Shown here: positions 1 through 55,891 of the stretch, piece after piece
How positions within the stretch are numbered: the stretch's first letter is position 1
Layout: every line of letters starts with the position of its first letter
Source of the DNA: Octopus vulgaris
Lineage: Eukaryota
Assembly: GCA_951406725.2 (NCBI GenBank)
Contig: OX597823.1
Span: forward strand, 56,482,001 to 56,546,000
Direction: 5' to 3'
DNA: 64,000 nt
Notes under the pieces: model-generated
What the model was told of the DNA's origin: nothing
Databases searched by the model: none
What the model saw: only the letters and a program-made list of their open reading frames with translations
Program-made: the position numbers and the translations under genes

Positions 1-796
1 TCTTTCGTCTGAGAATCTGGGCATCTTTTACTCGAGTAGCTTCTTGTCAACAAGCACTTGCATATATGTTGATAGATAAATAAATAGAAAGATAGATCGA
101 TAATTATACAGTAGCCCTTTGTTTTATTTATCTATATATTCTGCAAACATCATCTTGTGGTGCACCTGGACACCTCTTCATTGATGTATTTATTTACGTA
201 ACCGGACAACGATTAAAAACGTCGACCTTCGTTTGGGTTAAACCCCAGAACATTGCAGGACGCACATACCTTTTAGATATTTACTACATAACCAACGATG
301 CACTTATTATACCACCATCCTTTCGAGATTAGTTTTTATATTCTCCTATTAAATATAAAATTAAATTTTCGCAACAGAATGGCATCTAGTTGCTATCATG
401 TTTTCTGAAGGGCATTAGTTACGTAAATGAAATGTTGACTAATAATACTAAGGAATCGAAATCAGCGACTGAGTTTTGTTTAGGAACTTAGCTTGACCTG
501 TTTGTAACAGGAAATTGTGATATTCAATTTGTTTCTTAAGGGCCATTATCCGTAATTGGAAGTCAACACTGAGTTGCACCATTCATTGTTTTGGTCTACG
601 TATTATGTATGACCATCGAAATGTAATTCAAATTGATTTCGTTGGTAGTAGAGAAAGAGGTTAATATTAACCGAGAAAGATATATGTGGCATTCATGCCT
701 TTCCGAAGGGAAGTACTGACATAAACGAAGATAATATGACGATCTTTCATTATGAAGAAAAAATCGCCACTTTCCCTTGGAGTATCCGATTAATTT

Positions 797-1286
797 TGGT
801 ATTATTTATTATTACACTCGTCTTGTGTAATGAATATAACCTCTGATCCGTGAATTTTCGTAATAGCTAACTACTTCATGGAGAAAGAAAAGGGCAAGGA
901 ATTTAGGGACGGTTTCCATATGTAAAATAATTGCTTAATGTTTGTTCCCCCCCCCCCATTTTTGCACTTCCGTTCCGTTCCGTGCCCATCTCCGGCGTAA
1001 AAAAAATCTACCAGAAACCGCTATCCATTTTCTGCGGAGGTAAAGAATACGCACACCACCCGTTTTCTGCGTAACCCTAACCCGGCGAAAGTAAAGAATA
1101 CGGGTGGTGGTGTACGTATTTTTTTTTACCTCCGTTCCCTAACCCTAAACACCGGGTGGTCATATTCTTTACCTTCGCCCCATTTTCTTGCATTTCCTCT
1201 TCTCCATGAGGTAGTGGCAACTATTTCGAAGGTCCACCGAGATTACACCCGTCTCACGAAACGGGTGCAATAGCAAAAATGTACCA
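797..1286. mobile_element. Non-autonomous foldback/MITE-like element with nested inverted repeats and CCCTAA units
   Basis: Outer IR ggtattatttattattacactcgt / acgggtgcaatagcaaaaatgtacc; inner IR ctacttcatggaga / tctccatgaggtag; palindromic gaatacgcacaccacccg / cgggtggtggtgtacgtatt; taaccctaac units near 1072 and 1137. Confidence 0.55.
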
Positions 1287-2637
1287 TAATCAACACGTTG
1301 CTAATTCATAAATATCAATATTGATACTTTCCGAGTGTGTAAATGATTTTTTTTTTTTTGCTCGTTCATAAAATTTCTTACATTCATCGATCGTTCTCGC
1401 ACTGTTCGAACATTGCTATTAGCTGTTAGACCAACACCGCCTTGCTTCAAGAGTAAAGGGAGTCTCATCGTGCCTCCCGGCCTGCTAGAAATAGCAGTTA
1501 AATCTTTAACTGGCTCCTTATAGATGTGACGGCGAAGTGCCTTCGGGTTAAGACGAAAGATTGCCGATGTGACTTCAGATAATGCCGGTAAAGGTGACTT
1601 TAGATAAGGACGAGATTGTCATAGCTGGAATGCCTTGTGATTCTGAGGACAAACGGCATTTCTTCTTTGTGTGTATTGATAAAATTACTAGCTTCCACAA
1701 GGCAAACTAACAATATTTATGAATTTACTGCACGTCGGTAACATTTGTGGATTACTCACAAAAAGACAGTATCAATAAAATTATTTATCAAATATATCAG
1801 CTTAGAAAAGTGTGATCAAAAGAATGAGCCCTTAGCTGCCTTGTACGAAATTTGTTTCAGTCTTATCTTGATAACAAATCATTTAGTTTAATACATTATT
1901 CCACCCTTCCTGATAATTCTCTGCATAAGAAAAGGAATTGTTTTCTTTTCGCACCGAACGCAAGTGACATTCCGATGTCTCTGTTATATAAAAACTGTTA
2001 TGTAACATGTTCTTGACTGGGACCGTCGAATGACCTGCTTAACTCAATGATTCATTTTGACATTAACAAATATTAAGTATTACTATCATCCTGACCTTAG
2101 TAATTTTCATTCTTGGTTGTCAAAAGCTTTGGATCCAAAACCTTAACTGAACTAGGTTGTTTTGTTCTCAGTTTAGAGAACACTGTGTTAGGTACTCTAC
2201 AGGGTCAGTTGTTTAACAGCTGGCTCTATAATTTTAATAAGGCTCTAATTTTTTTCTCCCTTTTTCAAGCATAAGTAAAAAATAATGGGGATGAGAGAAA
2301 GTTGCGATAGAAAAAGAGGAAAAATGTTAATGTTATGAGAAACAAAATCGAACGGATGTATATGTAGCTACCTACATACAGTTAGAACTGCCGTAATTTT
2401 AAAAGCTGGACAATAAATTTGTTGAAGGCTTCTTGGTTCCTTGGCATGTTTAATCCCTTTTAACTGCAATTTCGTAAAAGGATAAATTTTCTTTTCATTT
2501 GAATGAACGTGGATATGTGTACTTAATTAATGATACTTATTTGTATTATATAAGACGGTGTTATGTAACGTTTCTCTTATCCTTGACTTGGAGGTTAAAT
2601 AGCCTTAATTTTACGACATATTTTAGCACCGTCTTGA

Positions 2638-2943
2638 TTAGGGGTCAGTATACTGGAGTAAATTACCCGAAGTGGGGTAAAAATGAAATTCTTGGGGCCA
2701 ATGATGACTCATTAGACATAAGTAAAATTATATAAAAACGTGTTCTTTGTTACGGCAGAAAATTTTCCTCTGGCAGCATTGCATCTGTCCAATGTATTGG
2801 ACGTGTAATAGATTCACAAAGATTCAATAAACCCTTTGAATTCAAAGAATCTATGATTTTATTCCTTTCAAATCAAGGGGGTAATGTTGGCGTAAATAAA
2901 TATGTCTTGGGGTAATGGGTTAAAAAAGTTCCCTGACCCCCTG
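2638..2943. mobile_element. hAT-like MITE (degenerate)
   Basis: Termini aggggtcag ... ctgacccccctg resemble the CAGGGGT-type TIRs of hAT/Charlie MITEs. Confidence 0.45.
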
Positions 2944-3461
2944 ATCTAGGTATATTGTTTATTATCATAAAGTGGGAAATTAAGATAAACCTACATTTGC
3001 TCTGTATGTCGTAACTACTAACACTACTTAAGTACAGTGGTCAACTAAGTACTATACAAGAAGCTGACTGGATTATGGTAATCTGCGTCGAGCTTTCTTT
3101 CATACTATAGTGAGTCGTGTTTCTAACTGTACACAGACGATATATTTTTGGTAAATTTTTATTTTATAATTTACTTGTTTCAGTCTATTAGACTGCGGTC
3201 ATGCTGAGTTCCCACCTTGAAGAATTTTTTGTTGACTGAATCGACCAAGGTATCTTTTTATTGGTGTTTAGGGGTTAGGATTACGGTTATGCCAAAAACA
3301 GGTGGTGTGCGTATTCTTTACCTATACTCTTTAATTTTTTTAAAGCTTGCTACTTATTCTCTTGATCTCTTTTGCCGAACTGCTAAGTTATAGGACATAA
3401 AGACATCAGTACTGGTTGTCAAGTGGTGGGGCAAACACACACACACATATATATATATATA

Positions 3462-5525
3462 CTAGCTGAAGGTGACCCGCTCTACGCGCGGGTAAGAGTG
3501 GACAGATGCAATGCTGCCAGAGGAAAATTTTCTGTCGTAACAAAGAACACGTTTTTATATAATTTTACTTATGTCTAATGAGTCCTCATTGGCCCAAAGA
3601 ATTTCATTTGTTACTTTCTGTTGCTTCCTTTCAGCACTTAAAAAGCACCATCTGAACGTGGCCGATTGCAGTGCCGCCTTGACTGGCTTCTGTGCTGGTG
3701 GCATGTAAAAAGCACCAACCGATCGTGGCCGCTGCCAGCCCCCCTGGCACCTGTGCCGGCGGCAGGAAAAAAGCACCCACTACGCTCACAGAGTGGTTGG
3801 CGTTAGGAAGGGCATCCACCTGTAGAAACACTGCCAGATCAGACTGGAGCTTGGTGCAGCCTTCTGGCTTCCCAGACCCCGGTCAAACTGTCCAACCCGT
3901 GCTAGCACGGAAAACGGACGTTAAACGATGATGATGTTGATGATGATTCTCCCTCCTTTCTCTCTCACTTTCCCACTCTGTTACTCTTCCTTTCTCATGG
4001 ACTCTCCCTCGCTTTCTCTTACTCTCTATCTTTATCTATCTCTCTCCCATTTATAAACAACAAAAGATCTTGAGTAAGTTGAGAAATAAAATATTTAGAA
4101 AGATCAATCATAAATATCAGGCAGTAACAACGGAAAGGTCTGCTTCAAGGCAGACAGCAAAACACTAACATTTAAAAGGGACAGACGAACTTGCGAGCTG
4201 AATAAAAATAATAAAATATTGGAAACCAAAGTTTTAAGGGATAGAATTTGAGGATAGTAGAGTCACCATGGCTGGCATTTCTTAACGACGGACAGCAACG
4301 TATTGACAGTTTAACGGCTGGCGTAAAATTTTGAACTTGATGTAAAAGAAAATCCCTAAACACCAAGTTTTGAATTGATTCTTTCTCACAACAGTAGACT
4401 CACCATGGCAAGCATTTAAAACTTCTTCATCATGGACGGCAACACATTGACGATTAAAAGGCTGGCGCAAATTTTTTAGCTTGATGTAACAGAGAATTGC
4501 TAAACACCCGCTCCTTTAAATTTTAATCCCCTTCAAGCCCCATTTAGACCCCTTTTCACATTTTGGTTAATATAACCCGATTTCATTCGGGTCTACTGGG
4601 GCCACATTTTATAAGATGAGGAATTTTGTCCTAGAGGTCACGCCTTTCATTTGAGGAAAAAAATAGTTGTCATGCAAACTTGCCAGCACTTTTAACATAG
4701 GTGTGCATATTTTCAGCTCAACCGACCACATAATGCACACATTATATATATGTATATATATATGTGTGTGTGTGTGTGTTGGAGTCTCTCTCATACGTGA
4801 GCGTTGACACTGAATTCGGCTGGTAAGCAGGTAACCTTGTCTTTGTTGAAATAGTTGTGAGCTGTTGGAGTTATTTCTCTGACGGGTAATAAGAATTTCC
4901 ATATCCTCCGAGGAAACGAACTGTTGACCCAGACAATTAGAATTAATTTTAATAAAAACATCAATTTAAGAAAAAATAATAAAGTAGTAAAAAATGAAAA
5001 TTTAGCACGAAAAATTTGCAGGGTTCTAAATAAATGTTAAAATGTAATAGATACGAAAAACCTATGTTATCACCAGAACACGAACGCTGGTTGGTGTGTT
5101 CTGTTTGTATTTGGTCGATCGGCACGTTGACAGGTAGACAATAGAATGCGATGGCGATGGAATATTTGTTTCTCTCTATGAATGCAGACAGATACTTAAG
5201 TGAAAGTTATGGGAAGGTAAGAAATAGAGTGAGTGAAAATGTACTGGGAAGAGAGGAAATAGCGAGAGTGAGTTGAGGAAAACAGATACATTAAATAATG
5301 GGAGTGGACTTGTCAAAGTTATATATGAAGGGGAGTTAGAGGGGAATGGAGGAAATAGCGTGAGTGAGGAAGATGGCCCCTAGCAACCACACCTTTTAAG
5401 ATAGAGATTTCTAAGGTAGCCCACGGGCATCGTCACCTCATTTTACATGTCCCTGTAAATTTTGGAGCGAATCGGACGGGATGTAGTGGCATTGAAAGCG
5501 AGCCAGGCGGTAAAAACGCATTTCA

Positions 5526-5535
<10 letters not shown>
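3462..5535 (-). mobile_element. Non-autonomous Helitron-like element carrying a nested SINE and an internal tandem duplication
   Basis: Minus-strand 3' end is a GC hairpin (acccgcgcg..gcgggt) followed by CTAG at 3462-3465, flanked by (TA)n. The 5' end runs into (TA)n near 5535. A ~135-bp diverged direct repeat lies at 4226-4510. Confidence 0.6.
3636..3946 (+). repeat. Family-A retroelement (SINE or LINE 3' UTR fragment) with (GAT)n tail
   Basis: ...aaaaagcacccactac...gttggcgttaggaagggcatcc...gtccaacccgtgctagcacggaaaacggacgttaaacgatgatg; at least 12 related copies in the window. Confidence 0.85.
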
Positions 5536-5565
<30 letters not shown>

Positions 5566-8019
5566 GACAGGCTTCTTTCAGTTTCCGTCTACCAAATCTA
5601 CTCACAGTGCTTTGGTTAGCCCAAGGCTATAGAAGACACTTGCCCAAGGCACCATAAAATGGAACTGAACCCAGAACCATGTGGTTGGGAAGCAAGCTTC
5701 TTGCCACACAGCTTCACCTGCACCTATTTATTTTCTTTTGTATATATTGTATGAATCGGATGTTCATTTACTGTTCCAACTTCCTTGGACAAGGCATTGT
5801 ATTTTACTGAAGCACCTTGTTAGTTCTTGGATTCTGTCCTGAGCTAAAAGCATACCCAGAAGGAGTTCCAAAATGTTTCTAGTCATAAAATTTATGACAG
5901 TTACATTTTATAAAACAAATACTATTTCCCTCTTTCTAAACATCTTTGCATATGTTTGCCATTGTATATCTTGTGCACTAGACATACAATTTTATGTCTG
6001 TATATGTTAAAGCAATGGATTATGTTGTGGGGGGGAGGAAAAGTTAATTTCTGTTGTAGTGTTTATCTGCTTTCTAGTGCAGATGCTGCTCATTTTTGCA
6101 TTGATGTAGCCACTATGTTGTTTCAATCAATGTGTTGCTCTGTCTGGTATGGCACAAAGCCACCAGATTTGGGGACATCATCGTTTAACATCTGTTCTCC
6201 ATGCTAGCATGGGTTGGACGGTTCGACCGGGGATCTGGGAAGCCAGAAGGCTGCATCAGGCTCTAGTCTGATCTGGCAGTGTTTCTACAGGGACAGGCTA
6301 GTGTATTATGTTGACTCCATCACTTCACTGGTATAAGACACTTTGTGAAAGAACTGACAAAAGAGGAGTACTGTTGCACAGTACAGGTAGTGGGAAGTTG
6401 GTGCACAAAGGTTTGTTGCAGCTTCTTTGTGCCTACTAATATTACTTGGTCAGTTTAGAGTCAAAAATTTGCAAAAGAACAGTGATGATGAACAGAGACA
6501 GCTGAGAGGAGCTCAGAATGGCTATGGGCAAAGAGAAATGACAGCTGGAGCTAAAAAGGGATACTGCAAGCTGCTTAAACATAGCAAAAAGGAAACCCAG
6601 TTTGAAATAGATCCACAGTGCAAGTTCTTTGGTGGTTTTTGTGGCTGAGCAATAGTACACCACAGTTCAGTGAAATAAGATCATCTGAAAGAGGTTCAAA
6701 CTTCAATCTCCATTAAAGATTGCATTTCAAAAGCAGCAGTAGGACATCTAGGAGTCATGACTTAGGTGGGCATGGCTCCCTTATTATGTCAAGAACTAAT
6801 GGGCCAAAAACACTTGATAGATGGAAGCACTTCTTCTGAAGGTTTCTGTTGCTGTTTGCTCACACACCATAGCAAGTTTCCACTTACTATTTTACTCATG
6901 ATAGTTGAAAGGCAGAGTTGGCTCTGGCAGGATTTGATCTTAGAATGTAGAATGATGCAGCTAAATACCACAAGACATAATAATTCTGCCGATGCATCAC
7001 TTTTAGATGGAATTAACTTTTCTTTCTTAACATTTCATGTTTCTAATTTCTTTGAAGAAGTGCTTCTGCCTGAAACCCCAGTTTACGCTTTTCACAGCAC
7101 ACAAATTTATCTGTATATGTTACTTTAATTCTAACGGAGAGGAGGACAATGACAACAAAACAACACAACCAGCTTAAAAAAGGTGCATCTTGAAGAATAT
7201 TACAAGCTTGCAACTAAATATATGCACTATATTATTGCATATTGTATTGAAATTTGGTCAAAGGTGTACATTTTTTATTACTTGTGATACCTTTGAAAGT
7301 GAGTGGTAGATAAAAAGTACTGGAAATTTACAGAATTATGTCAGACTAACTTGCTGGGTATTTACATTTAACAGGCTCATAACCTCTACATGATTGATAA
7401 AACTGCTTGAAATAACAGTTAAATCTCCCTCTAATCATCATTATTGTTTAATGTCCACTTTCCATGCCAGCATGGGTTGGATAGTTTGACAGGAGCCTGT
7501 TGGGTTAAAGAGTACCCCAGGCTACTGTGTCTGTTTTGGAATGGCTTTTATGGCTGGATGCCCTTCCTAACACCAATCATTCATCAGAGTAGACTGAGTC
7601 CTTTTCACGTGGCACGAGCACCAACAGGGTCACCAAGTAACTTGCAAGACACATAATTTTGAAAGGAGGGGAACTTGTGCCAAATGATGAAAGGTTAGAG
7701 TGTAACAGACAGGCAGAAACAGGTGTCTTGCTATAGAGGAGGGGCTGTCATTGGAAGAGGTGATCTTGTGTCAGATGATGAAAGGTTAGAGTGTGACAGT
7801 TATCCAAGAAAAAATAGAAAAAAGAATGAGTATATATTAGCTAATGTAGACCTACATAAACTATGTTTGAAGAAGGATTAGTTGTTCTTTGATTAGGTTT
7901 GTTCAGTCAGCACTGACCTGGGATTAAACAGGATACCATATTTGCTAGTGTATAAGACATGCTTTTTTTTTTTTGTTTTTGAATGTATCAAAAGTTGCCC
8001 TGTGTCTAAAGCAACTTTA

Positions 8020-8244
8020 TTAACCCTTTAGCATTCAGATTACTCTTATGTGTAATGCTTATTTATTCACATTTAAAAAAATATAATCTTGCATTATCTC
8101 ATAACTGAGATTTTGATGATGTGGTTATTTATTTTTAGAAGGCCATTGTAGAGTAAGTGTAAGAGGCCAGGTGTAGCTGGTTTGAACATAAAACAGGTAG
8201 AATATTTGGGCCATGTATGGTCAGTTTAAATACTAAAGGATTAA
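8020..8244. mobile_element. piggyBac-like MITE
   Basis: ttaa-ccctttagcatt ... aatactaaagga-ttaa (TTAA flanks, CCCTTT-type TIR). Related copies at ~22155-22382, ~31627-31990, and partial copies at ~12210 and ~35100-35180. Confidence 0.65.
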
Positions 8245-8504
8245 GGATGGGAGACCAAGTGTCACAGGTGGAAGCATGTGGCTTAGTGGTTAGGGTGTTG
8301 GACTCATGATCCTAAGAGTATGGTTTTGATTCCTGGACTGAGTAACACATGTTCTTGAGCAAAACACTTCCATTTCATGTTGCTCCAGTCCACTCAGCTG
8401 GCAAAAATGAGTAATTTTGCAACTGACTGGTGTTCTGTCCAAGTGGGGAATATATGCGCCATGGAAACTTGAAAATCAGCCCTTATGAGTTGGCATGATT
8501 TAGG

Positions 8505-9724
8505 CTGTCTATGGAGGAGTGATGCTAGGGCTGTGAAATCTTGTATGCATTAATTTCAGCTGTTCTTATTAATAACTGCATTGTTTCTTTCCAAGTAAAC
8601 TGACATCAGACTGTTCAAAGAAGACATCAAAAGTAACTAGTAGTGACTTCTCTTGAAAATCGACAAAATTTGGCATTGTGCTGTTATCAAGTACCAGCAG
8701 GAAAAGAGTTTATCCCTCAACAACATTCATGATGACATGGTTGCTACATTGGGAGATGACACTCCAGCTTTATCAACATTGCAAAAGTGGGCAGCTGAAT
8801 TTAGGAGGGGAAGGGAAAGTCTTGAAGATGACCCCAGATCTGGATGTCTTGCAACTGCCACCACTGAGGAAAACATTGATTATGATGGATGACAGGCGAT
8901 TGACTATAAATCAAATAGCCAATGCTATTAGCATATTCTGTGAGAGAGTTGAGAATATTCTGCTCAGTGAACTTAGAATGATAAAGGTTTCTCAGTGGGT
9001 GCCATACCTTCTGATATCTGATCAAAAGTGCACCAGGCTGATCACATCATGGCAAAATCTGACATTGTTTGAGGCAGATCCAGCTGGTTTTGTTGAATGT
9101 TTCCTAAGCCAAGATGAGAGTCAGCTTTACTTTGAGCCAGAGACAATCCATGCAGTGTAAACACTATTTCCTCACCTGCTCCAAAGAAGGCCAAGGACAT
9201 TTCATTTGCAGGGAAGGTGATGGCCTCAGTTTTTTTGCAGTGCAAAAGGCTTTGTGTTTATTTACTATCTTCAAAAGGGCTGCTCCATAAATGGAGAGTA
9301 CTATGCCAACTTGCTGAGGCAGTTACAAAAGGCTATCAAAACCCAAAACTCAGGAAAACTGACGAATGGTCTTGTTTCATCAGGGCAGTGTTCCAGCATT
9401 GGTTTCAATGACTGCTATGCATGACTGTAACTTTGAACTTGTTAATCACCCTCCCTGTTCTCCTGATTTGGCTCCATTTGTTCCTTGACATGAAAAAACA
9501 CTTGACTGGGAACCAGTGTCTCAGTGATGATGAAATCATATCTGCTGTTGACTTTTTTGACCAGCAAGATGAAAACTTCTTCACCAATGGGATCCAAGCA
9601 CTCCAACACTGATGGAAGAAGTGTGTGGACTACAAGGGGGGCTATGTTGAAAAATAAACCTCATTTGGTCACAATCTATGGGAGTATCTTGGTCAGACTA
9701 TGAGCTTTTCAGTCAACCATCATA
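8505..9724 (+). mobile_element. Mariner transposon remnant (frameshifted transposase)
   Basis: ORF pieces KWAAEFRRGRESLEDDPRSG, DRRLTINQIANAISI, WVPYLL, GKVMASVF and HPPCSPDLAP (the mariner WVPHEL and YSPDLAP motifs). 3' TIR-like gagcttttcagtcaaccatcata. Confidence 0.9.
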
Positions 9725-9860
9725 TGTATGTATGTATCTATTTCCATGTGTGTGCATGTGCACATTGGTTTACATTCACAAGCTACAGTCGGTGATGTTG
9801 TCATTTCTTTTATCAACAAATTGTTTTTTGCTTTTCACCTTTGAGGATGAAATATCAAGT

Positions 9861-10059
9861 GGTGACCAACTGTATAATTGACTATATGTTGGTCAAGGAA
9901 ATTACCAAACAGGATGTGAAACTTGTATTTCTGGTTTGAGGTTTTGTGTCTCTGTGATTAACCATCAGGGCAGTACACCACTACTATGGCTTTGTTATAT
10001 CCACTTGCTATGAGTAGCTGACATGCAGATGAAAATTTAACATCCCTTGATGTTTCTCA
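9861..10059. repeat. Copy 1 of a 199-bp local direct duplication
   Basis: Aligns without gaps to 11762-11960 (offset 1901), about 86% identical by hand count. Confidence 0.9.
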
Positions 10060-10294
10060 ACCAAGAGTTAGTGACGGGAAGGCTATTTGGCTGTAAAACA
10101 ATGCTTCATTGCTGTTGCAAAATGTCCAATTATATTTTTCCATCTTAAGTTCTAATGTGTATATACTTAAAGGCTTTCAGTCCATAAACTTTTGTAACTT
10201 TCTATATTCTGTAGACCAAATCTGCAGATTTATCACACTTTGCATAGAAAAAAATGTGTGTGTATGTATATATACACACGCACAAGCGCACGGA

Positions 10295-11521
10295 CAGGAG
10301 TTGGACAAAATAATGGAAACACCTTGCATCATAATTTTGAAATATTTATAAAACCGTCAAAAGCTTGTTTATTTTATTAATTTTTTTATTTATTATCAGT
10401 GTTGTTTAATATGTTTTGTTAAAATTGCTGCTTCTTTTCAGATATCATCAGAAAAAGGTAATTAAAATGCATTAAAATAACAGATTTATCGGACTTTGAA
10501 AGAGGTTAAATTGTTGGTGCTCATATGGCAGGTGCTCACATAATGAAAACAACCAAAATGTTTGGTATATCAAGAAGTACTGTCTCGAAAGTAATGAAGG
10601 CCTTTGAGAAACAAAACTCTGGAAGAAAACCAAAACTTTCAGATAGGGACTGTTGGACTCTTATGCATACCGTTAGAAAGGATCACAAAAGTACAGCTCC
10701 CAAAATTATGCAGAGCTTAATGACCACCTCGAGAACCCACTTTCCACAAAAACTGTTTGCTAGGAGCTGCACAATTCCAGATTTCACAGGAGGGCTGCAA
10801 TCAGAAACCACTACTTTCAAAAACAAATGTTGCAAAGCATTTAGAGTGGAGTAAAAGCCTACAGAATTGGTCCCTAGAGCAGTGGAAGAATGTTATTTTC
10901 TTGGACAAGTCATCCTTTACCTTATTTCCAACCACCGGCCGAGTATATGTGTGGAGACAGCCAAAAGAAACATTTGATGCAGACTGCCTTCTTCCAAGTG
11001 TTAAACATGGAGGAAGATCTGTGATGACCTGGAGGGCTATATCTTGGAAATCTGCTGGTCCAATGGTTTCACTTGATGGTAAAATTAATAGTCAAGACTA
11101 TTTAAGCATTTTATCTGATCATATTCATCCTTTGGTTGCAGAACTGTTTCCAAAGGGAAATGCAATCTTTCAGGATGATAATGTACCAATTCACACAGCT
11201 AAAGTTGTTATTGAATGGCATGAGAAACATTCTTAGTGAAGTTGAACATCTTATATGGCCACCACAGTCCCCAGATCTCAATATTATCGAACATTTATGG
11301 TGTATTTTAGAAAAACAAGTAAGGAGTCCACCATCATCTCTTCAAGAACTGGAAACTGTTTTAGCTGAAGAATGGACAAAAATTCCTTTGGAAACAATTC
11401 AAACTTTGTACGAGTTCCTACCTTGTAAAATTCAAGCTGTAATTACTGCCAAAGGCAGTCCTACCCCATATTAAAATAAATCTGAAATTTTAAGGTGTTT
11501 CCATTATTTTGTCCACCCCCC
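10295..11521 (+). mobile_element. Tc1-family transposon, both TIRs present, transposase disrupted
   Basis: TIRs ggacaaaataatggaaacacctt (10303-10325) / aaggtgtttccattattttgtcc (11492-11514). ORF pieces GISRSTVS, SGRKPKLSDRD, WKNVIFLDKSSF, VKHGGRSVMTW, FQDDNVPIH, WPPQSPDLNIIEHLW, VITAKGSPTPY. Confidence 0.95.
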
Positions 11522-11577
11522 TATGGTATTTGAGTACTCTTTTTTTCCACCTTGTTTCACATTTATGTGTTTACTCC

Positions 11578-11622
<45 letters not shown>

Positions 11623-11761
11623 AAATCACCATAAAGCTTTTTATAAGAATATAAAAGTCAAAATTTTACTATTATTTTACAAACATATTCTGTGGGAAAA
11701 CCCCCCACAAATTCTCTGTTTCATTACTTGTTGAAAGATATTTTAAAGTGGTTTTGTAGTT

Positions 11762-11960
11762 GGACACCAATTGTACAATTGCTTATATTTTGGTCAAGGG
11801 AATTACCATATGGGAAGTAAAACTTGTATTTCTGGTTTGAGGTTTTGTGTAATTGCGATTAACCACCAGGGCAGTACACCACTACTATGGTTTTGTTACA
11901 TGCACTTGTTGTGAATAGCTGACCTGCAGATAAAAATTTAACATTCCTTGGTGTTTCTCA
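11762..11960. repeat. Copy 2 of the 199-bp local direct duplication
   Basis: Gap-free alignment to 9861-10059. Confidence 0.9.
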
Positions 11961-13970
11961 GCTATTTTCTTTACTTATGAACTGCTTTCATCCCTAATTC
12001 GCTTAGCTGTAGCCACTTGGTTATTTGATGTTTTTGAAAATTCATATATTTTTATAATTAAATGTTATTAGTTGTATGAAAAATTAAAATATTTTGTGTA
12101 TTGAAGAAGTATAACCAATTTATTGTACATAAGTTTTTAACAACAATATTTTATATGGACCTCTAGGGGCCATATGAACCACAATTTTAGATAATTAAAA
12201 AAAATGTTTCTTAACCTTTTAGCATTCAGATTACTCTATCGAATGTAATGCTTATTTATTACTTCCACCTTAGCAAAGGTGGAGGTATTGTTTTCAGTTG
12301 TGTTTGTTTGTCCGTGGACAAGATATTTCAAGAACTGTTGGATGGATTCAGATGAAACTTTTAGGGTTGTTTGACCTTGTGACTAGCTCAAAGTGATTAG
12401 ATTTTGTAACTGGCATGTAAAAATCACCCAGTATGCTTTAAGTGGTTGGCATTAGGAAGGGCATCCAGCTGTAGAAGCCATGCCAAATCAGATTGGAACC
12501 TTGTCCAGCTCTCCAGCTTAGTAGTTTTCAGTCAAACCATCCAACCCATGCCAGCATGGAAAACAGATGTTTTATGATGATGATGATGATGATAAATTAC
12601 AAATCATATGTGGATTATGTATGCTGGAGAAGGAGGTGTAATGCAATGATGTGACCTCCTTACGTAAGTGCTGATGTACTTTAAATAAATAAGTTTTTGC
12701 CAGTAGTCTGATAATTTGGCTTTTCAATATTTTATTGTTGGTAATAGTTGTACCAAGCAGACTTATGCTCATCTAGCTTCCTAGCTTCCTTGGCTGCTCA
12801 CTCTCCCATGGCTGCTTTGAATGCAGCACAGCTTTTTCAGATACTTTTAAAAATAATAATGCACATTTTATACATGGGTAAATATGGTAGTTTAAAATTT
12901 CAGTTCATTTAAAAACCTAGGAAGACCCCTGTGTTTATTCAAGGTGACATTCTTGTTTACCAGTTGTCACAAAGTTATGTCAGGTTGTAGTTTTGCCAGA
13001 TTATGCGTCTATCTAGCAAATGTCAGAAAGCTAGTCCTAAATACTTTAAATGAAGTAATTGTTCACATATATATCCTAAACTTCAAGCATTTAGTCATAA
13101 AAGTGAAATAGTCCTTTGTGTATACAGTTAAATGAAACAGACTTTATCCCAATTTATGTGACAGCAGTTAAAAGGCATGAAGATTACTGTTCATGTTGCT
13201 CATGTGTTAGAAGTATTAAATATTGATAAAATTGGAACAGTATTTGCTAGATTAAAGTGAACAAAAACAAAAAAAAAACAACTGTGGTTTTGAAGCAGAA
13301 AGCAGCTGAAGGGTTGCTCAGGCTCTCTGTCTGTTTTGACATGGTTTCTATGGCTGGATGTTCTTCTTAATGCCAACTACTCTATGCGGCATCTGCAGGG
13401 GGTGCTTTTATGTAGCACCAGCATGGTGCTTTTTATGTGGCACCAGCACCTACAGGCCTGCGATATTTGGGATGCAGGGACAATCCTTTATGCAAAGACA
13501 ACTATGCTTTTACTTAGCTTGGTGTGTCTTTTCAAGCACAGCAAATCATGTCATTTCCTCTGTGAGTCCCAATGTCTGTAGATCTTTTTTCACCACTTCG
13601 TTCCACGTCTTCCTGGGTCTACCCCTTACACATGTTCCCTCTACAATTAGAGATCAGCACCTCTTGATGCAACTGTCTCCATTCATACACATTACATGGC
13701 CATACCAGTGCTGTCTTTCTTGCATACTGCATCTGATGCTATGCATATCCATTTTTTCTCTCAAATGACTTACACTTTGTTGAAGTTCATGTGGTTCACT
13801 TGGTCTTTGTGCTTATATATATATATATATATATATATAGCAATTAAGGACAACCTCTTAATAAGGAAAACTTAACAAGAAATTATCGGGTAGATAGCGT
13901 GAAAAACCTCATAAAAGGAAAAATTTCGAAAATAATTCTTTCTTATTGAACATATTAATTTATATATATA

Positions 13971-14385
13971 GAGGGCATTATTATACATACATGCCACACG
14001 CTAAGAGGGACAAAATTAGTCATTTCTACCAAAATTTTACTAATCCCACCGAATGCAATTTTTCAAAGTAAGACATTTAAAAATATGGACTTGTATCACC
14101 TGTGATTTCATACCTCTGTATTCATCAGCAAGTCTGGGCGTATCATAAATAAACGAACCCAACTCGTCTAAGCCGAGCACCCATCTGATCAACTTCAACG
14201 AAGCACATGGGTGGGTTTACATATATTACATCCGGTAAATGGCAGACTTTTACGAATTGCATTTCGGGAAAGGAAAAGTTTTTTCGGAATAAAAATTTAG
14301 CAATTAAGGTGGGATTAGTAAAATTTTTGGTAGGAATGACTAATTTTGTCCCTCTTAGCGTGTGGCATGTATGTATAATAATGCC

Positions 14386-14388
<3 letters not shown>
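13971..14388. mobile_element. Penelope-like element fragment: 80-bp inverted arms enclosing a hammerhead ribozyme
   Basis: 13971-14050 is the near-exact reverse complement of 14308-14388; both arms abut (TA)n; a hammerhead motif lies in the loop. The Penelope assignment is inferred from architecture only. Confidence 0.6.
14088..14134 (-). ncRNA. Type I hammerhead ribozyme
   Basis: Minus strand reads GACUUG-CUGAUGA-AUAC(AGAG)GUAU-GAA-AUCA(CAGG)UGAU-A-CAAGUC: complete catalytic core, all three stems Watson-Crick, AUA cleavage triplet. Confidence 0.88.
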
Positions 14389-14432
<44 letters not shown>

Positions 14433-14436
14433 TACC

Positions 14437-14643
14437 CTTTACTCTTTTACTTGTTTCAGTCATGCTGGAGCACCGCCTTTAGTCGAGCAAATCGACTCCA
14501 GGACTTATTCTTTGTAAGCCCAGTACATATTCTATCGGTCTGTTTTGCCGAACCGCTAAGTGACGGGGATGTAAACACACCAGCATCGGTTGTCAAGCAA
14601 TGCTAGGGGGACAAACACAGACACACAAACATATACACACACA

Positions 14644-14691
<48 letters not shown>

Positions 14692-14862
14692 CATATATAC
14701 GACAGGCTTCTTTCAGTTTCCGTCTACCAAATCCACTCACAAGGCATTGGTCGGCCCGGGGCTATAGCAGAAGACACTTCCCCAAGATGTCACGCAGTGG
14801 GACTGAACCCGGAACCATGTGGTTGGTTAGCAAGCTACTTACCACACAGCCACTCCTGCACC
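14437..14862 (-). mobile_element. Family-C tRNA/CORE-like SINE with internal (AC)n/(AT)n microsatellite
   Basis: Minus strand: A-box-like tggctgtgtggtaag, B-box-like gggttcagtcc, CORE-like cttgggaagtgtctt, tail ...ctgaaacaagtaaaagag. Confidence 0.85.
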
Positions 14863-14871
14863 TATATATAT

Positions 14872-15251
14872 ATATAAAGCTGAAGTTGTCTGTGTATGGC
14901 TGGTTTGGTAGCCTTCAACTAACACTATCTCCTCCAAGACCCTGCGGCGCAAGTTGACCAAAATTGAGAGTATGATAGAAGGCTTGCTCTTCATTCCATA
15001 CATGAAAAAATTCAAATCGGACCATGTTAATACCAAAAATTATTTACATCAAAAAGGTGCTTTTTTTTCTATGAAAATCCCTATTTTTTACGATTTTTTG
15101 ACTGCTGTGTCACCATTTTTCGGTGTATTTCAACCAGAAAAATCTTCACTTAAAGATAATAACAAGCTACATAGTTCAAAAATTTTACTTTTCAAAAATT
15201 CCAATTCTAAAGGGTTGAAACAAACCCGAGCAACGCCGGGTGATACTGCTA

Positions 15252-15252
<1 letters not shown>
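14872..15252 (+). mobile_element. Non-autonomous Helitron
   Basis: Starts tatataaagctgaagttgtctgtg; ends with hairpin cccgagcaacgccggg then CTAG (15249-15252) followed by T; inserted in (TA)n. Confidence 0.75.
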
Positions 15253-15285
<33 letters not shown>

Positions 15286-16573
15286 AGCAAAAGTGCAATA
15301 GAGGACAATTAAGCATCTGGACAGACAGATGATGCAAAGGTGGACAGGAAGAACAACAAAAAGAGGGACAGGAAAAAATTGGATGGGTCATTCATGGCCT
15401 TCTTTCATCAGTTTCCAGATTGTCCTCACAGTTTCGGGCAGTTACACTTAAGACTGTTCAAATCAGGTTTCCCCCAAAAAGTGTAAGCATTATATTTTTT
15501 TCTAAGAAAGAAAGTGAATATGACAACAAAGACAAAAGATGGAGAACCTGTTACACAATTACAAATACACAAATACAAACAACAAGAATATAACAACAGG
15601 CGTCTTTTGACTAATAAGGAAGAATCAAATTGAGCTGGCATGTATAGAGTGAAAGCCTTGAGGCAGGAACATAGATGGACATAAGAGATGTTGGCAGTCA
15701 AGCCAAGAAAGAAAGATCATGGCTGGCTGAACATCAGTCACGTGGAAGGAGGAGAGAGGGGTAACGGGCAGAGGGATTTGGAGAAGGGGAAAGAGAAAAA
15801 AAATCAAAAGGACAAAGAGAAGGGCCAAGAAATGTGAGAGAGGGGGAGCAAGAAAAAAAAAAAGAAAGTATGGGGGGGACTAAAAGATGGAGTGTGCTGA
15901 GTGCTTTTTACATGGTATTAGTAACTTGTATGACATTACTTGGTGACCTCTCTAATGTTGGTACCATGTAAAAAGCACCCTGTACATTGTGAAGTGGTTG
16001 GGTTACCTCCCTCTTGATTGTGTTTCCAATAATCTACTATAATGATACGCGTGTGTGTTTTTCTGTCACAACATGTGAATGGGAAAGGAAGGGGTGATGG
16101 CAAACTTGGTAGTGGGATGATGGAAATTCTACGGTGAAAAAAAAATCAAACCACCTTTCAACTCTGTGTGAGTGTCTATGTTAAAGAGGTGTGTGTGTGT
16201 GTGCAATGAAAGTGGGATAGTGAACATTCAACACCGAAAAGAAAAAGCAAACTGCATTTCAACTCTGTGTGAGTATGCATGTGCGTGTACAAGGGAAGTA
16301 TGTGAATGTTTATCTGTGTGAACCAGCTTTCTTTCAGTAACAAACGATGATAGATGTCAATTCTCAAAATACAGCCACTAGATAACATTGAGAAGTGTAT
16401 TAATTTGAATTACCATCCATATTCTATCTTTTGTCCTTATTTATATGTAAAATCCTACAATTAACTGTAATTTTTGATGGCACGGAGCCAGCTAGTGGTT
16501 ATATTTTCTTAGATTAACCTTTTGTCGATTTAATAATAATATGATTTATTATTAAACACACACACATATACAC

Positions 16574-16975
16574 TTTTACTTGTTTCAGTCATTTGACTGT
16601 GGCCATGCTGGAGCAGCACCTTTTAGTCGAGCAAATTGACCCCAGGACTTATTCTTTGTAAGCCTAGTACTTATTCTATTGGTCTCTTTTGCCAAACCGC
16701 TAAGTGACGGGGACGTAAACACACCAGCATCAGTTGTCAAGCGATGTTGGGGGGGACAAACATAGACACACAAACACACACATATATATATATATATATA
16801 CACACATATATGCAATGGGCTTCTTTCAGTTTCCGTCTACCAAATCCACTCACAAGGCTTTGGTTGGCCTGAGGCTATAGTAGAAGACACTTGCCCCAGG
16901 TGCCTCGCAGTGGGACTGAACCCAAACCATGTGGTTGGTAAGCAAGTTACTTACCACACAGCCACTTCTGTGCCT
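16574..16975 (-). mobile_element. Family-C SINE, full length
   Basis: Same head, CORE-like segment, microsatellite and tail as 14437-14862. Confidence 0.85.
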
Positions 16976-17925
16976 ATATGTGTAATATATATTTAATGTT
17001 AAAGCTGTATTATGTTTATAGAAACTTAAATGTACGTTATCATATTTTATGTACTTATTTATGTAATCTAGCTTGCTATGTTTACTCTTTGTGAGAAATT
17101 TAGTTCAGAATATCAAGGACTAAATAGGGACCGTTACATTGAGTGTAGGAAAAAAAAATGAAGGCAAAATACATGAACTGATTTTTAGGTACGAAAAGGT
17201 GAAAAGGTGAAGGCTACTTTATATTCAAAGATTGCATTGTACTCGAGAGTGAATAGAAGTAGTTCAGATTTAGATAATGAATTTCCTTTTTTTATCTATC
17301 ATACAAGATAACCATATAAAACAGAAAAAGCAATACTGTTACATATTAGAGCAGTGCAGCTGATTGGTTAAACTGATTGTTTACATACTTAGAAACATTG
17401 GTGAGGTAATTCATTAAAACATTTGCACTTGCTGCCTTTTTTTTTTTCTTTCTTTTCTTTTTATCATCATTGTGTCAGCGTACACTTTTCTATGATTTCA
17501 TAGACCTGGTGAAATTTGTTCGTGTATTTTTTGACAGTTGGATAATCTTTACTATTGCTCATCCTCACTTATCTCCAAACAAAGTAATATTTCACTAATT
17601 CTTCCAACACAAACAAATAAATGGCCAGGTTGTGTGTGTTGTTTTTTTTAATAGTAGATTGCAAAACAAATAACCATACTTCTATATAAAAAGTGATTTT
17701 GTATACAATCAATGTGCAGTGTTAAGACAGGATCTCTCTCCCTCCCTCTCCCTCTCTCTCTCACACTCACACAGATGCTTCTTTCAGTTTCCATCTTCCA
17801 AATTCACTTGTAGGGCTTTGATTGGCCAGGGGCTATAGTAGAAGGTACTTGTTCAAAGTGCCATGCTGTCGGACTGAACTGGAAACCGCATAGGTGGAAG
17901 GAACTTCTTAACCATACACGTGCCT

Positions 17926-18317
17926 ACTCTTTACTCTTTTACTTGTTTCAGTCAGTTGACTGCGGCCATGCTGGAGCACCGCCTTTAGTCGAGCAACTCG
18001 ACCCCGGGTCTTATTCTTTGTAAGCCCAGTACTTATTCTATCGGTCTCTTTTGCCGAACCGTTAAGTGACGGGGACATAAACACACCAGCATCGGTTGTC
18101 AAGCAATGCTAGGGGGACAAACACAGACACACAAACATACATATATATACACATATACGACGGGCTTCTTTCAGTTTGTGTCTACCAAATCCACTCACAA
18201 GGCTTTGGTCGACCCGAGGCTATAGTAGAAGACACTTGCCCAAGGTGCCACGCAGTGGGACTGAACCCGGAACCATGTGGTTGGTAAGCAAGCTACTTAC
18301 CACACAGCCACTCTTGC
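17926..18317 (-). mobile_element. Family-C SINE, full length, young (CpGs retained)
   Basis: Near-consensus copy. Confidence 0.85.
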
Positions 18318-18927
18318 CAACAATATTTTTTGTTATTTCTTGTAGTAGAGGTAAATTGATAAGTTGTGAGTTCAAATCCATTGTAAATTTTTCTTAAGGA
18401 CATTTAGGTCGTGCTGATAACAGATTCCTTCAAATGTACTCCACCATTTCAATTGTTTCATGATGTGTATTTTAGCTTTGCTGCTTGGTAGATCTAAATT
18501 CTCATGAAGAATTTTATCCTTGTGAATATAACCATTTACTTTGCCAATAACTTTTAGTGCTATTTTAAATCATATCAATGAAACTATATGCATTCAGAAA
18601 CCTTTAATTCCAATGAAAATGTTCTCTTGTCCAGCATTTATTTTGTTTTTAAATTAAGAAGATATAGTTGATGGAATCTACTTCAATATTGTATTTTCTA
18701 AGTATTACTGGAAATGAACATCTGCAATTTGTTTCTAATTGATCAGTCATCATTATGGTGATGTCCATTTCTGTTTTTTTTTTATTTATTTCTGACAACA
18801 TAATTGTTTTTCTCTATAATCATGAAAGTCGTTTGCCAATAATGATTTTCTTTAATTTTTTGATTGTGACTTAATTTCTCTGAGTTTTGATTTTTATTCT
18901 ATTGAGTCATCTATATTGTGATTTCAG

Positions 18928-43466
<24,539 letters not shown>

Positions 43467-49508: not shown

Positions 49509-49689
49509 AATATATATGCGTGTGTGTATAGTATAAGTTAGTTAAAACATGTTTGCAATAATCAGTGCCGCGTGGTGGAAATAAACGCATATTCCAAACT
49601 TTCATTCATAAATCCATTTATTATTTTGTTCTTTTGCATTTCAATTTGTACCCAGAAATTTTCGACAACTGCGCACCAGAAGAAATGGG

Positions 49690-50002
49690 GGAAAAAAATT
49701 CCCAGAATTAAACTTAGCCCAAGTGATGCAAATATTCCATTCACACTAAACATACTTCAGTTTCCACTTCGACTTGCATATTCAATGACAATTGATAAAG
49801 CTGAAGGGCAAGCATTTGAAAAAGTTGGAATACATTTGCCTCAACTGGTATTTTCTCATGGCCAATTATATGTCGCATTTTCAAGAGCACGAGCTATGAA
49901 CAATATCAAAGTAAGAGTTATGACACTCAATTGGGATGACAGACAAGGCCAAAAACGTGGTGTGACATACACACAAAATATTGTCTACCGCGAAGTACTG
50001 CG
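49690..50002 (+). mobile_element. Helitron Rep/helicase C-terminal (PIF1-like) fragment
   Basis: IPRIKLSPSDANIPFTLNILQFPLRLAYSMTIDKAEGQAFEKVGIHLPQLVFSHGQLYVAFSRAR...TQNIVYREVL matches SF1/PIF1 helicase motifs V-VI and the typical Helitron C-terminus. Confidence 0.9.
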
Positions 50003-50404
50003 AGGAAGATCACTGTACCAGCTAGCATCACATACCAGCCGCTCCATCATTACACATCCACATTACACCTTTAAGATCGGTGAACCAGTTAGAGACCCGC
50101 TGGATCTCAATCGGCATACAAGCAAACCACAAAATTGCACCAGCCAGCATCACAACTACCCGTCATATGTATGTATGAATGTATGTTTGTGTGTCTGTGT
50201 GTGTGTATTTGTCCCACCATCAGCATTGCTTGACAACCGATATTGGTGCGTTTGTGTCCCTGTAATTTAGCTGTTCAGCAGAAGAGACTGATAGAATAAG
50301 CACCAGGCTTACAGGGAATAAGTCCAGGGGCCAATTTCTTCGACTAAAGGGTGGCCACCGTGAAATGACTGAAACAAGTAAAAGAATAGCAGAAAAACGC
50401 TTGC

Positions 50405-51827: not shown

Positions 51828-52032
51828 GTTATTCTTTTATTCTCTTATTTGTTTCAGTCATTTGACTGCGGCCATGCTGGAGCACCGCCTTTAGTCGAGC
51901 AAATCGACCCCAGGACTTATCCTTTGTAAGCCTAGTACTTATTCTATCGGTTTCTTTTGCCGAACCGCTAAGTGACGGGGACGTAAACACACCAGCATCG
52001 GTTGTCAAGCGATGGTGGGGGGACAAATACAG

Positions 52033-52084
<52 letters not shown>

Positions 52085-52242
52085 GACGGGCTTCTTTCAG
52101 TTTCCGTCTTCCAGATTCACTCACAAGACTTTGGTCGGCCCGAGGCTATAGTAGAAGACACTTGCCCAAGGTGCCACGCGGTGGGACTGAAACCGGAACA
52201 TTGTGGTTGGAAAGCAAACTACTTACCACAGCCATTCCTGCC
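51828..52242 (-). mobile_element. Family-C SINE, full length
   Basis: Near-consensus copy; further copies at ~52275-52625, 53052-53505 and 53525-54170. Confidence 0.88.
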
Positions 52243-52402
52243 TCTAATATTTTAGTAAAAGAATTTATGATTTGTCGTTTACTTGTTTCAGCCATTAGAT
52301 TGCGTCCATGCTGGGGCACTTCTTTGAATAATTTTTAGCCGAAAGAATCGAACTTAAGTTACATGAATGTAAACACGTTACAAACTAACACACACATATA
52401 CA

Positions 52403-52497
<95 letters not shown>

Positions 52498-53249
52498 GAC
52501 GGGTTTTCGGTTTCCATCTAATAAATCCACTCACAAGACTTTAGCTATCCCGAGGCTCAAGTGTCACGTAGAGGGACTGAATTCAGAACCATGTGGTTAG
52601 AAACATACTTATTGCCGCACAGTGACGAATGTTAAGTTGTCTGAAGTGATTTAGTTGCAATAATGACTATACATCTTAGGTAACTTGCGATAACTTCTAT
52701 AGATTGAGCCACAAATTAATTTACAAAAGTTATTGGAAAAAAAAAAGTAGTGTTCGTTCAAGGGAAATAACTTTCAAATAAATATACAAAGTTATCTCCC
52801 GTTAATTTGGGCACATTTTTATTTTTACGTCTTGAGGTATTCAGCAGGTAAACTCATGAGGGACTTGTTCGCGCGCGAGTTTAGCACGGACTTTTGTCAG
52901 TGAAAAGGTCGCGGTCTCAAAGCGACGAAAATATTTTGACAAATTACATTTAAATGTTGAAGCGAATCTAACGATTTCTGCATGTTTTTAAATGGCTTAT
53001 AAACACCTTCCACGCTGCAATTGTAAAAGAGTATATATATATATATATATATACTCTTTTACACGTTTCAGTCATTTGACTGTGGCCATGCTGGAACAAC
53101 GTCTTTAGTCGAAGAAATCGACCCCAGGACTAATTCTTTGTAAGCCTAGTACTTATTCTTTTGGTCACCTTTGCCGAACCGCTAAGTTTTGAGGACATAA
53201 ACACACCAACATCGGTTGTCAAGCGATGGTAGGAGGACAGACACAGACA

Positions 53250-53347
<98 letters not shown>

Positions 53348-53699
53348 CGATGGGCTTCTTTCAGTTTCCGTCTTCCAAATCCGCTCGCAAGACTTTGGTT
53401 GGCCCGAGGCTATAGTAGAAGACATTTACCCAAGGTAACACGCAGTGGGATTGAACCCAGAACCACGAGGTTGGGAAGCAAACTACTTACCACCCAGCCA
53501 CGCCCAATCTTTTATCTTGTTTTAGTCTACACCCATGCTGGGGCACCACCGTGAAGGGTTTTAGTCGAACAAATCGACCCTAGGTCTTATTTTTTTAAAA
53601 GTCTACTTTAAAAGTCATTTATCTATCGGTGTCTATTGCTGAACCGCTATGTTACAGAGATGTAAACATAGCGTCGGTTTTCAAACACAAAGACACTTA

Positions 53700-55752: not shown

Positions 55753-55891
55753 GTATGTATATGTAAATATATATAATATATATATATATATATACATATG
55801 TATGTATATGTAAATATATATATATATATACATATGTATGTATATGTAAATATATATATATATATATATATATACGTAAATATTTATATAT
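55408..55891. repeat. (TA)n/(TATG)n compound microsatellite
   Basis: Directly visible; resumes at 57917-58034 after the LINE. Confidence 0.95.

Follow-up and report, generated by a model that had tools for sequence, protein, structure and literature searches.

The window, by which we mean the whole 64,000-nucleotide stretch of Octopus vulgaris DNA analysed here, opens inside the first coding intron of SDHA (Table 1). A search for SDHA coding exon 1 within the window found none; this exon (residues 1-29) lies 230-144 bases upstream of the window start on the plus strand and matches a protein whose source name is Octopus vulgaris (P0122). Aligned block by block, the SDHA exons show an 88-100% match to a protein that bears the name Octopus SDHA, and the first coding intron spans ~19 kb. 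As SDHA coding exons 1 and 2 flank the intron and are both on the plus strand, a hammerhead motif on the minus strand at 14088-14134 is antisense within it, so the placement in the first SDHA intron given by the original prediction holds for the first coding intron. The same intron contains frames at 10510-11474 (plus) that we take to be remnants of a Tc1/mariner-like transposase, although the one frame tested has no Pfam match, and a short-unit tandem array occupies 28990-29797 of an SDHA intron. Elsewhere in the window, a 685-aa open frame at 55777-57834 (plus) carries an RVT_1 domain (E 2.7e-31) and belongs to a LINE-like element, and a region at 49542-50270 (plus), presumably a PIF1/Helitron-like helicase fragment, gives weak Pfam helicase matches. 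Copies of an abundant SINE-like repeat are found at 14430-14870, 16553-16990, 17925-18330, 51836-52250 and 53032-53504, one of them directly to the right of a (TA)n tract that borders the hammerhead-bearing element.

Table 1. Positions, in window coordinates, of the SDHA intron and of the parts of the hammerhead-bearing insertion
Feature	Position	Strand	Remarks
SDHA first coding intron (host)	1-18927	plus	start 143 bases upstream of position 1; followed by exon 2 from 18928
Left (TA)n target tract	13814-13837
Main arm	13838-14309	minus	a non-coding monomer of 460 nt (14297-13838), with 12 nt from the one before it; 3' end is E2
Tail between fixed 3' ends E1 and E2	13838-13951	minus	~114 nt
Internal TA-rich site E1	13952-13963	minus	second fixed 3' end; other family arms stop here
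Type I hammerhead ribozyme motif	14088-14134	minus	descriptor match and covariation across subfamilies; predicted cut at 14094/14093
Helix I	14134-14129 with 14093-14088	minus	6 bp
Core CUGAUGA	14128-14122	minus
Helix II	14121-14110	minus	4 bp, AGAG loop
GAA	14109-14107	minus
Helix III	14106-14095	minus	4 bp, CAGG loop
H17 (A14094)	14094	minus	AUA triplet; predicted cut 14094/14093
Inverted 5'-truncated arm	14308-14390	plus	83 nt, ends at E1, free of hammerhead
Right (TA)n target tract	14391-14422

The helices, core, AUA triplet and cut site that had been predicted on the minus strand are present exactly as described, with every pair and the whole core intact. The motif has the parts of a type I hammerhead, namely the core CUGANGA and GAAA, an NUH triplet and three helices with helix I open, and it is the sole match to the hammerhead descriptor on either strand of the 64-kb window. 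Its pair 10.1-11.1 is A-U, as in the rest of its subfamily, in place of the usual G-C, which is typical and not obligatory; G10.1-C11.1 is described as highly conserved in hammerheads (PMC4209133) and is present in 33 of the 52 distinct motifs of this family. A chance match to the descriptor could be argued from two results: the minimum-energy fold of the 47-mer differs from the hammerhead fold, and the Rfam hammerhead models, proposed as a check, return no match at the gathering score and none at E<=10 within 13500-14800. Against chance, 300 dinucleotide-resampled windows gave 4 loose matches and a single match with stems of at least 6/4/4 bp; the genome-wide results below weigh further on this reading.

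An insertion of 553 bp (13838-14390) houses the hammerhead and has a (TA)n tract on each side, a repeat in which any target-site duplication would be unreadable. The original prediction had described the hammerhead correctly and had overlooked both the insertion and its inverted arm. Within the main arm, 14309-14298 repeats 13849-13838 and represents the end of a preceding monomer, whereas the inverted arm copies part of the sequence downstream of the hammerhead, and the junction between the two arms occurs nowhere else in the genome. The monomer has a GC content of 34%, its longest ATG ORF is 42 aa, and its circular form folds with a z of -3.8 against 40 shuffles. We saw no LTR layout in the element, and an ORF with RT and GIY-YIG domains, the mark of an autonomous Penelope-like element (PLE), is absent from it. 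The locus holds one hammerhead only, tandem hammerheads being a feature of other family members.

The exact hammerhead core is present in 114 copies genome-wide, and sister forms with G at the base of helix II, most of which have a longer helix II, number 101. A broader hammerhead pattern gives 771 matches, and a conserved 20-mer downstream gives 1,961, corresponding to at least 1,961 arms; the reversed-pattern controls for the exact core, the broader pattern and the 20-mer each return 0. The family comprises many subfamilies that form a resolved tree and differ in monomer spacing (458-460, 479 or 494 nt). This copy number and the family architecture bear out the proposed retrozyme or Penelope-like membership. 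The description of the family as young applies to the subfamily in the window, whereas the family overall is old and diverse.

Among 25 subfamily representatives, whose kinship inflates tests of covariation, 96.6% of helix cells are paired. Double changes affect 12 of 19 pairs, including 6/6 in helix I and 3/4 in proximal helix II; the core and helix III were fixed by the search pattern and carry no covariation information. The covariation score was reached by 0 of 500 shuffles, and slid-structure controls were at most 43% paired. The genome-wide search for covariation that had been suggested as a check thus found it, and as helices I and II covary strongly across subfamilies, the hammerhead fold is under selection. 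An independent sample collected by the downstream motif (37 rows, overlapping loci included) contained 14 exact motifs, 15 rows that fall short of helix III and 8 variants (6 with loop changes, 1 truncated and 1 with G12 changed to A), with the helix III loop altered and the 4-bp stem kept. The covariation of the helices already refutes a chance origin, and 771 related motifs against 0 in the control leave it virtually no room; we conclude that the hammerhead motif at 14088-14134 is real.

The mechanics of insertion were examined in 75 loci selected through the tail motif, which contain 122 arms; of 86 loci chosen for length, 11 were excluded. In this sample, 119/122 arms terminate at one of two fixed 3' ends, E1 or E2, which are 114 nt apart, and (TA)n is present on at least one side in 73/75 loci and on both sides in 58. 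Simple inverted insertions pair E1 with E2 in 39 of 41 cases, with E2 used twice in 1. More than one monomer is present in 35/122 arms, which wrap head to tail for up to 2.4 monomers (longest 1,094 nt), and 9/75 loci have two same-strand hammerheads in tandem. The cut site is crossed by 72/122 arms, 11 of which cross it twice. Segments repeated within a locus differ by 1.7%, compared to a median of 4.0% between loci (lower in 49/55 loci), and have 278 non-majority bases in common; therefore, both arms of a locus derive from one RNA variant. We found no pile-up of 5' ends at the cut site, and none at monomer positions 200-213; a mild excess at positions 210-269 (30/117; 219-264 lies 15-60 nt downstream of the cut) was not significant after scan correction (200/2000). 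The insertions thus show the partial tandems, inverted 5'-truncated copies, one-end tails and microsatellite targets of Penelope-like products, in a pattern that fits a circular template and an uncut multimer equally well.

The same genome contains a young family of Neptune-type PLEs, several copies of which have uninterrupted 781-aa frames with RT and GIY-YIG domains and with GxKF, DKG and CX2-5CxxC motifs; a CX2-5CxxC linker has been described for Neptune and Nematis (PMC8557442). These elements (L091-L097; for example, L091:2245-4587, plus) have pLTRs of ~460-500 bp. Their insertions are also at (TA)n targets and include partial tandems, and they use two fixed 3' ends ~35 nt apart: 15 rows stop at the first of these, 8 (from 7 loci) stop at the second, and 3 read through into the following unit. 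The two arms of L096 differ in this respect, the inverted arm having one end and the main arm the other. The Neptune element and the retrozyme have the same insertion fingerprint: (TA)n targets, partial tandems and one of each end.

Several further features of the resident elements were recorded. The L091-L097 elements carry a minimal hammerhead-like motif with a U3-A8 core swap, a swap known from schistosome PLEs. A second Neptune-like family (L100 and L064) has a minimal hammerhead 520-620 nt after the ORF, with a one-pair helix III and a palindromic loop. Beside a Neptune tail, L092:5545-5950 is a different hammerhead-bearing inverted mini-element, with a similar helix III of 5 bp and a 2-nt loop, and likely represents another retrozyme family. 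By eye, the Neptune tail and some retrozyme tails looked alike over their last 13-17 bases; this likeness was picked out post hoc in AT-rich sequence and was set aside.

As inverted 5'-truncated arms, one-end tails and (TA)n targets are standard features of PLEs (PMC8557442), the copies could instead be mere 5'-truncated pLTR pieces of an autonomous PLE, each made afresh. At L124:799-3147, one arm is indeed joined at its 5' end, with no microsatellite between, to the 3' region of a decayed PLE of like orientation; the junction could be a template-switch chimera or an insertion. The GIY-YIG search scored 150 of 6,136 candidates, so PLE sampling is partial and a parent could lie among the unsampled elements; within the sampled loci, an autonomous parent was not found by this search, by a profile scan or by a screen of 5' flanks. 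A 74-segment profile found no homology between the monomer and the termini of PLEs in 50 PLE loci, the only match being an unrelated insertion in L068. Truncation of a parent is further opposed by the long arms, which wrap head to tail up to 1,094 nt, by the subfamily-specific monomer lengths and resolved tree, and by the different minimal hammerheads of the resident PLEs. In addition, 156 distinct elements have 73 free 5' ends, 51 of which abut a microsatellite; among the other 22, 1 joins PLE sequence and one pair has a common flank. We therefore regard the copies as unlikely to be truncated PLE tails, and treat them as a retrozyme family in its own right.

The history of the hammerhead was followed in a midpoint-rooted tree built from sequence outside the ribozyme in 36 of 44 candidate loci. 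All 16 short-helix-II rows share one branch (support 99/94) that arises from within the long forms; this short-helix-II group in turn contains the A10.1-U11.1 group, to which the window copy belongs. An extended helix I and a distal helix II with internal loops, where tertiary contacts between the loops of helices I and II might form, are present in the long subfamilies; the subfamily in the window has neither, and most short forms, including that in the window, also lack the helix I extension. After the shrinkage, compensated changes continued, from G-C to A-U at 10.1-11.1 and from U-A through G-U to A-U in helix I. As pairs kept changing in compensated steps after a single shrinkage, continued selection on the fold is implied.

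In folding predictions, the monomeric hammerhead of the window copy (-5.8 kcal/mol) is outcompeted by an alternative structure that pairs the core with helix III (-10.3 kcal/mol, a gap of 4.5). Folding energies are a weak guide here, because ViennaRNA assigns low weight to the monomeric hammerhead fold in every subfamily. Helix III is predicted at +0.4 kcal/mol as a hairpin, while its 12 bases form a homoduplex at -11.2, and a dimeric hammerhead at -23.6 kcal/mol is within 0.6 of the two-copy cofold minimum (-24.2). Dependence on dimers is known for animal and PLE hammerheads (PMC4209133; PMC7229834). The original prediction had called the window copy probably active. Since a good fold is predicted for this shrunken hammerhead only in dimeric form and the copy is solitary, its activity is doubtful; the family is likely catalytic, and the window copy alone, with its one antisense hammerhead, is predicted to be weak and nearly inert.

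These data also bear on a stronger proposal, in which the family is a retrozyme whose shrunken hammerhead in the window's subfamily is dead or nearly so, spread being from uncut multimeric transcripts. The missing distal helix II and helix I extension, the A10.1-U11.1 pair, the competing fold and the free crossing of the cut site by arms are all in its favour, as is the finding that one of nine Xenopus retrozyme dimers cleaved in vitro and eight did not (10.64898/2026.07.22.740005). The compensated pair changes after the single shrinkage event, with the continued selection that they imply, speak against it, and we consider this proposal doubtful, if a serious minority view, and retain a hammerhead that probably works in the family through dimers.

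For the host gene, the expected consequences are modest. As a sense-strand hammerhead is absent at the locus, cis-cleavage of the SDHA pre-mRNA is not expected, in agreement with the claim that the antisense orientation would spare it. In SDHA-sense RNA, the inverted arm (14308-14390) and 13969-14050 could form an 83-bp hairpin, with 82 of 83 nt pairing, so the effect on SDHA is probably small and due to an intronic hairpin rather than to cleavage. A depth-3 contig from a run that is RNA by guess (X2) covers 14280-14376 and spans the junction found only at this locus, reaching 29 bases beyond it on the shorter side. It has A-to-G differences at 14332, 14342 and 14343, all within predicted A-U pairs, and no two of them are found together in any of 280 aligned family arms. 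A-to-I editing of the hairpin is possible on this weak hint, with an allele or an error as alternatives.

The intronic site in a highly expressed housekeeping gene and the intact core might suggest that the motif was co-opted by the host as a ribozyme that regulates SDHA or an antisense RNA, for which the conserved intronic hammerheads of amniotes would be a model. The core is one of 114 identical copies in a young subfamily and is antisense to the gene, and the element is 98% identical overall to that at another locus, with no locus-specific conservation. Co-option is therefore very improbable, and we interpret the insertion as one dispersed member of the retrozyme family.

Taken together, we conclude that this is most probably a metazoan non-LTR retrozyme that is mobilised in trans by a Neptune-type PLE from circular or multimeric RNA. 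Around the directly observed sequence, architecture, copy number, covariation, fixed ends and target, we infer cleavage, circularisation and the identity of the helper, the last from architecture only, because the monomer is without PLE homology and the sampling of PLEs is partial; another PLE family could be the helper instead. In the proposed cycle, tandem copies would be transcribed, and pairs of hammerheads, likely dimeric through the self-complementary segment of helix III, would excise monomers that are then likely ligated into circles. The PLE protein would nick (TA)n DNA and prime on the RNA at the two fixed TA-rich sites, E1 and E2, one per DNA strand. Rolling round the template would give arms longer than the unit, and the two cDNAs would join 5' to 5' to form the inverted repeat. 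A more specific picture, which we hold to be evenly balanced, is that of a free-living RNA-circle parasite of Neptune elements, with two-ended E1 and E2 insertion at (TA)n in the absence of sequence homology to its helper, and with a hammerhead that became, by stepwise shrinkage, a dimer-dependent switch.

Parts of the element are covered by contigs of four runs whose RNA nature is a guess. One of 229 nt is identical to 14070-14298 and extends only 24 nt past the cut site, and another joins the end of a monomer to its start, as is equally expected from tandem DNA; neither was used as evidence of expression.

If the proposed cycle is correct, the retrozyme and the intact Neptune ORFs in the same genome are a ready pair with which to test the trans-mobilisation of retrozyme circles by a PLE. 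The pairing of E1 with E2 (39/41), as in the resident Neptune element, is a mechanistic fingerprint, at a time when arguments about what mobilises animal retrozymes still draw on co-occurrence and on homology to pLTRs (PMC7229834; 10.64898/2026.07.22.740005) and the function of hammerheads in PLEs is described as unclear (PMC8557442). The strict E1 and E2 inversion, the long tail and the traced shrinkage of the hammerhead make the PLE-helper hypothesis testable. The family is also a natural series of hammerheads with compensatory changes.

We found no description of an octopus or cephalopod retrozyme in the literature searched, which lies outside the supplement of PMC7229834, Repbase and Dfam. 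A giant squid paper gives 235 Rfam hammerhead_1 matches, which the text consulted leaves without analysis (PMC6962438), and no molluscs appear among the species sampled in the consulted text of the vertebrate study (10.64898/2026.07.22.740005).

Compared to the metazoan non-LTR retrozymes of coral, mussel and axolotl (PMC7229834), the octopus family is alike in that its unit is short, non-coding and low in GC (34%) and carries a type I hammerhead, and in its head-to-tail repeats, its self-paired monomer and the presence of PLEs in the genome. It differs in that its monomer is 460-494 nt, against reported repeats of 150-450 bp, and in that its copies are mostly dispersed and shorter than 2.5 units, in contrast to the long arrays of classic retrozymes (PMC7229834). 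Its insertions also include arms inverted as in PLEs, have their 3' ends at two fixed sites and are strictly targeted to (TA)n, whereas the words "inverted" and "microsatellite" are absent from the main text of that paper. The earlier retrozymes show expression of linear as well as circular monomer RNA (PMC7229834), whereas the octopus family is described here from its sequence. The vertebrate non-LTR retrozymes of Li, Clavereau and Pollet (2026; 10.64898/2026.07.22.740005) are likewise non-autonomous and hammerhead-bearing, occur alongside PLEs, and include monomers, dimers and intronic copies, as in octopus. In Xenopus, 24 of 57 families are homologous to known elements, mostly PLE pLTRs (10.64898/2026.07.22.740005), whereas the octopus monomer has no homology to the sampled PLE termini.

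The Neptune-type endonuclease-positive PLEs described by Craig et al. (2021; PMC8557442) resemble the octopus family in their partial tandems, inverted 5'-truncated copy, one-end tail and microsatellite targeting. The octopus unit differs in having no ORF and a tail of ~114 nt, as opposed to 30-40 bp. The type I hammerheads of PLE pLTRs are suited to dimer folding (Cervera and de la Pena 2014; PMC4209133), as is that of octopus; the octopus motif, with helices I (6 bp) and II (4 bp) of canonical size and a helix III of 4-5 bp that contains a self-complementary segment, differs from the minimal PLE type without helix III. Neither an autonomous PLE nor shown to be derived from a pLTR, the octopus family has the testable features of a metazoan non-LTR retrozyme and inserts in the manner of a PLE.
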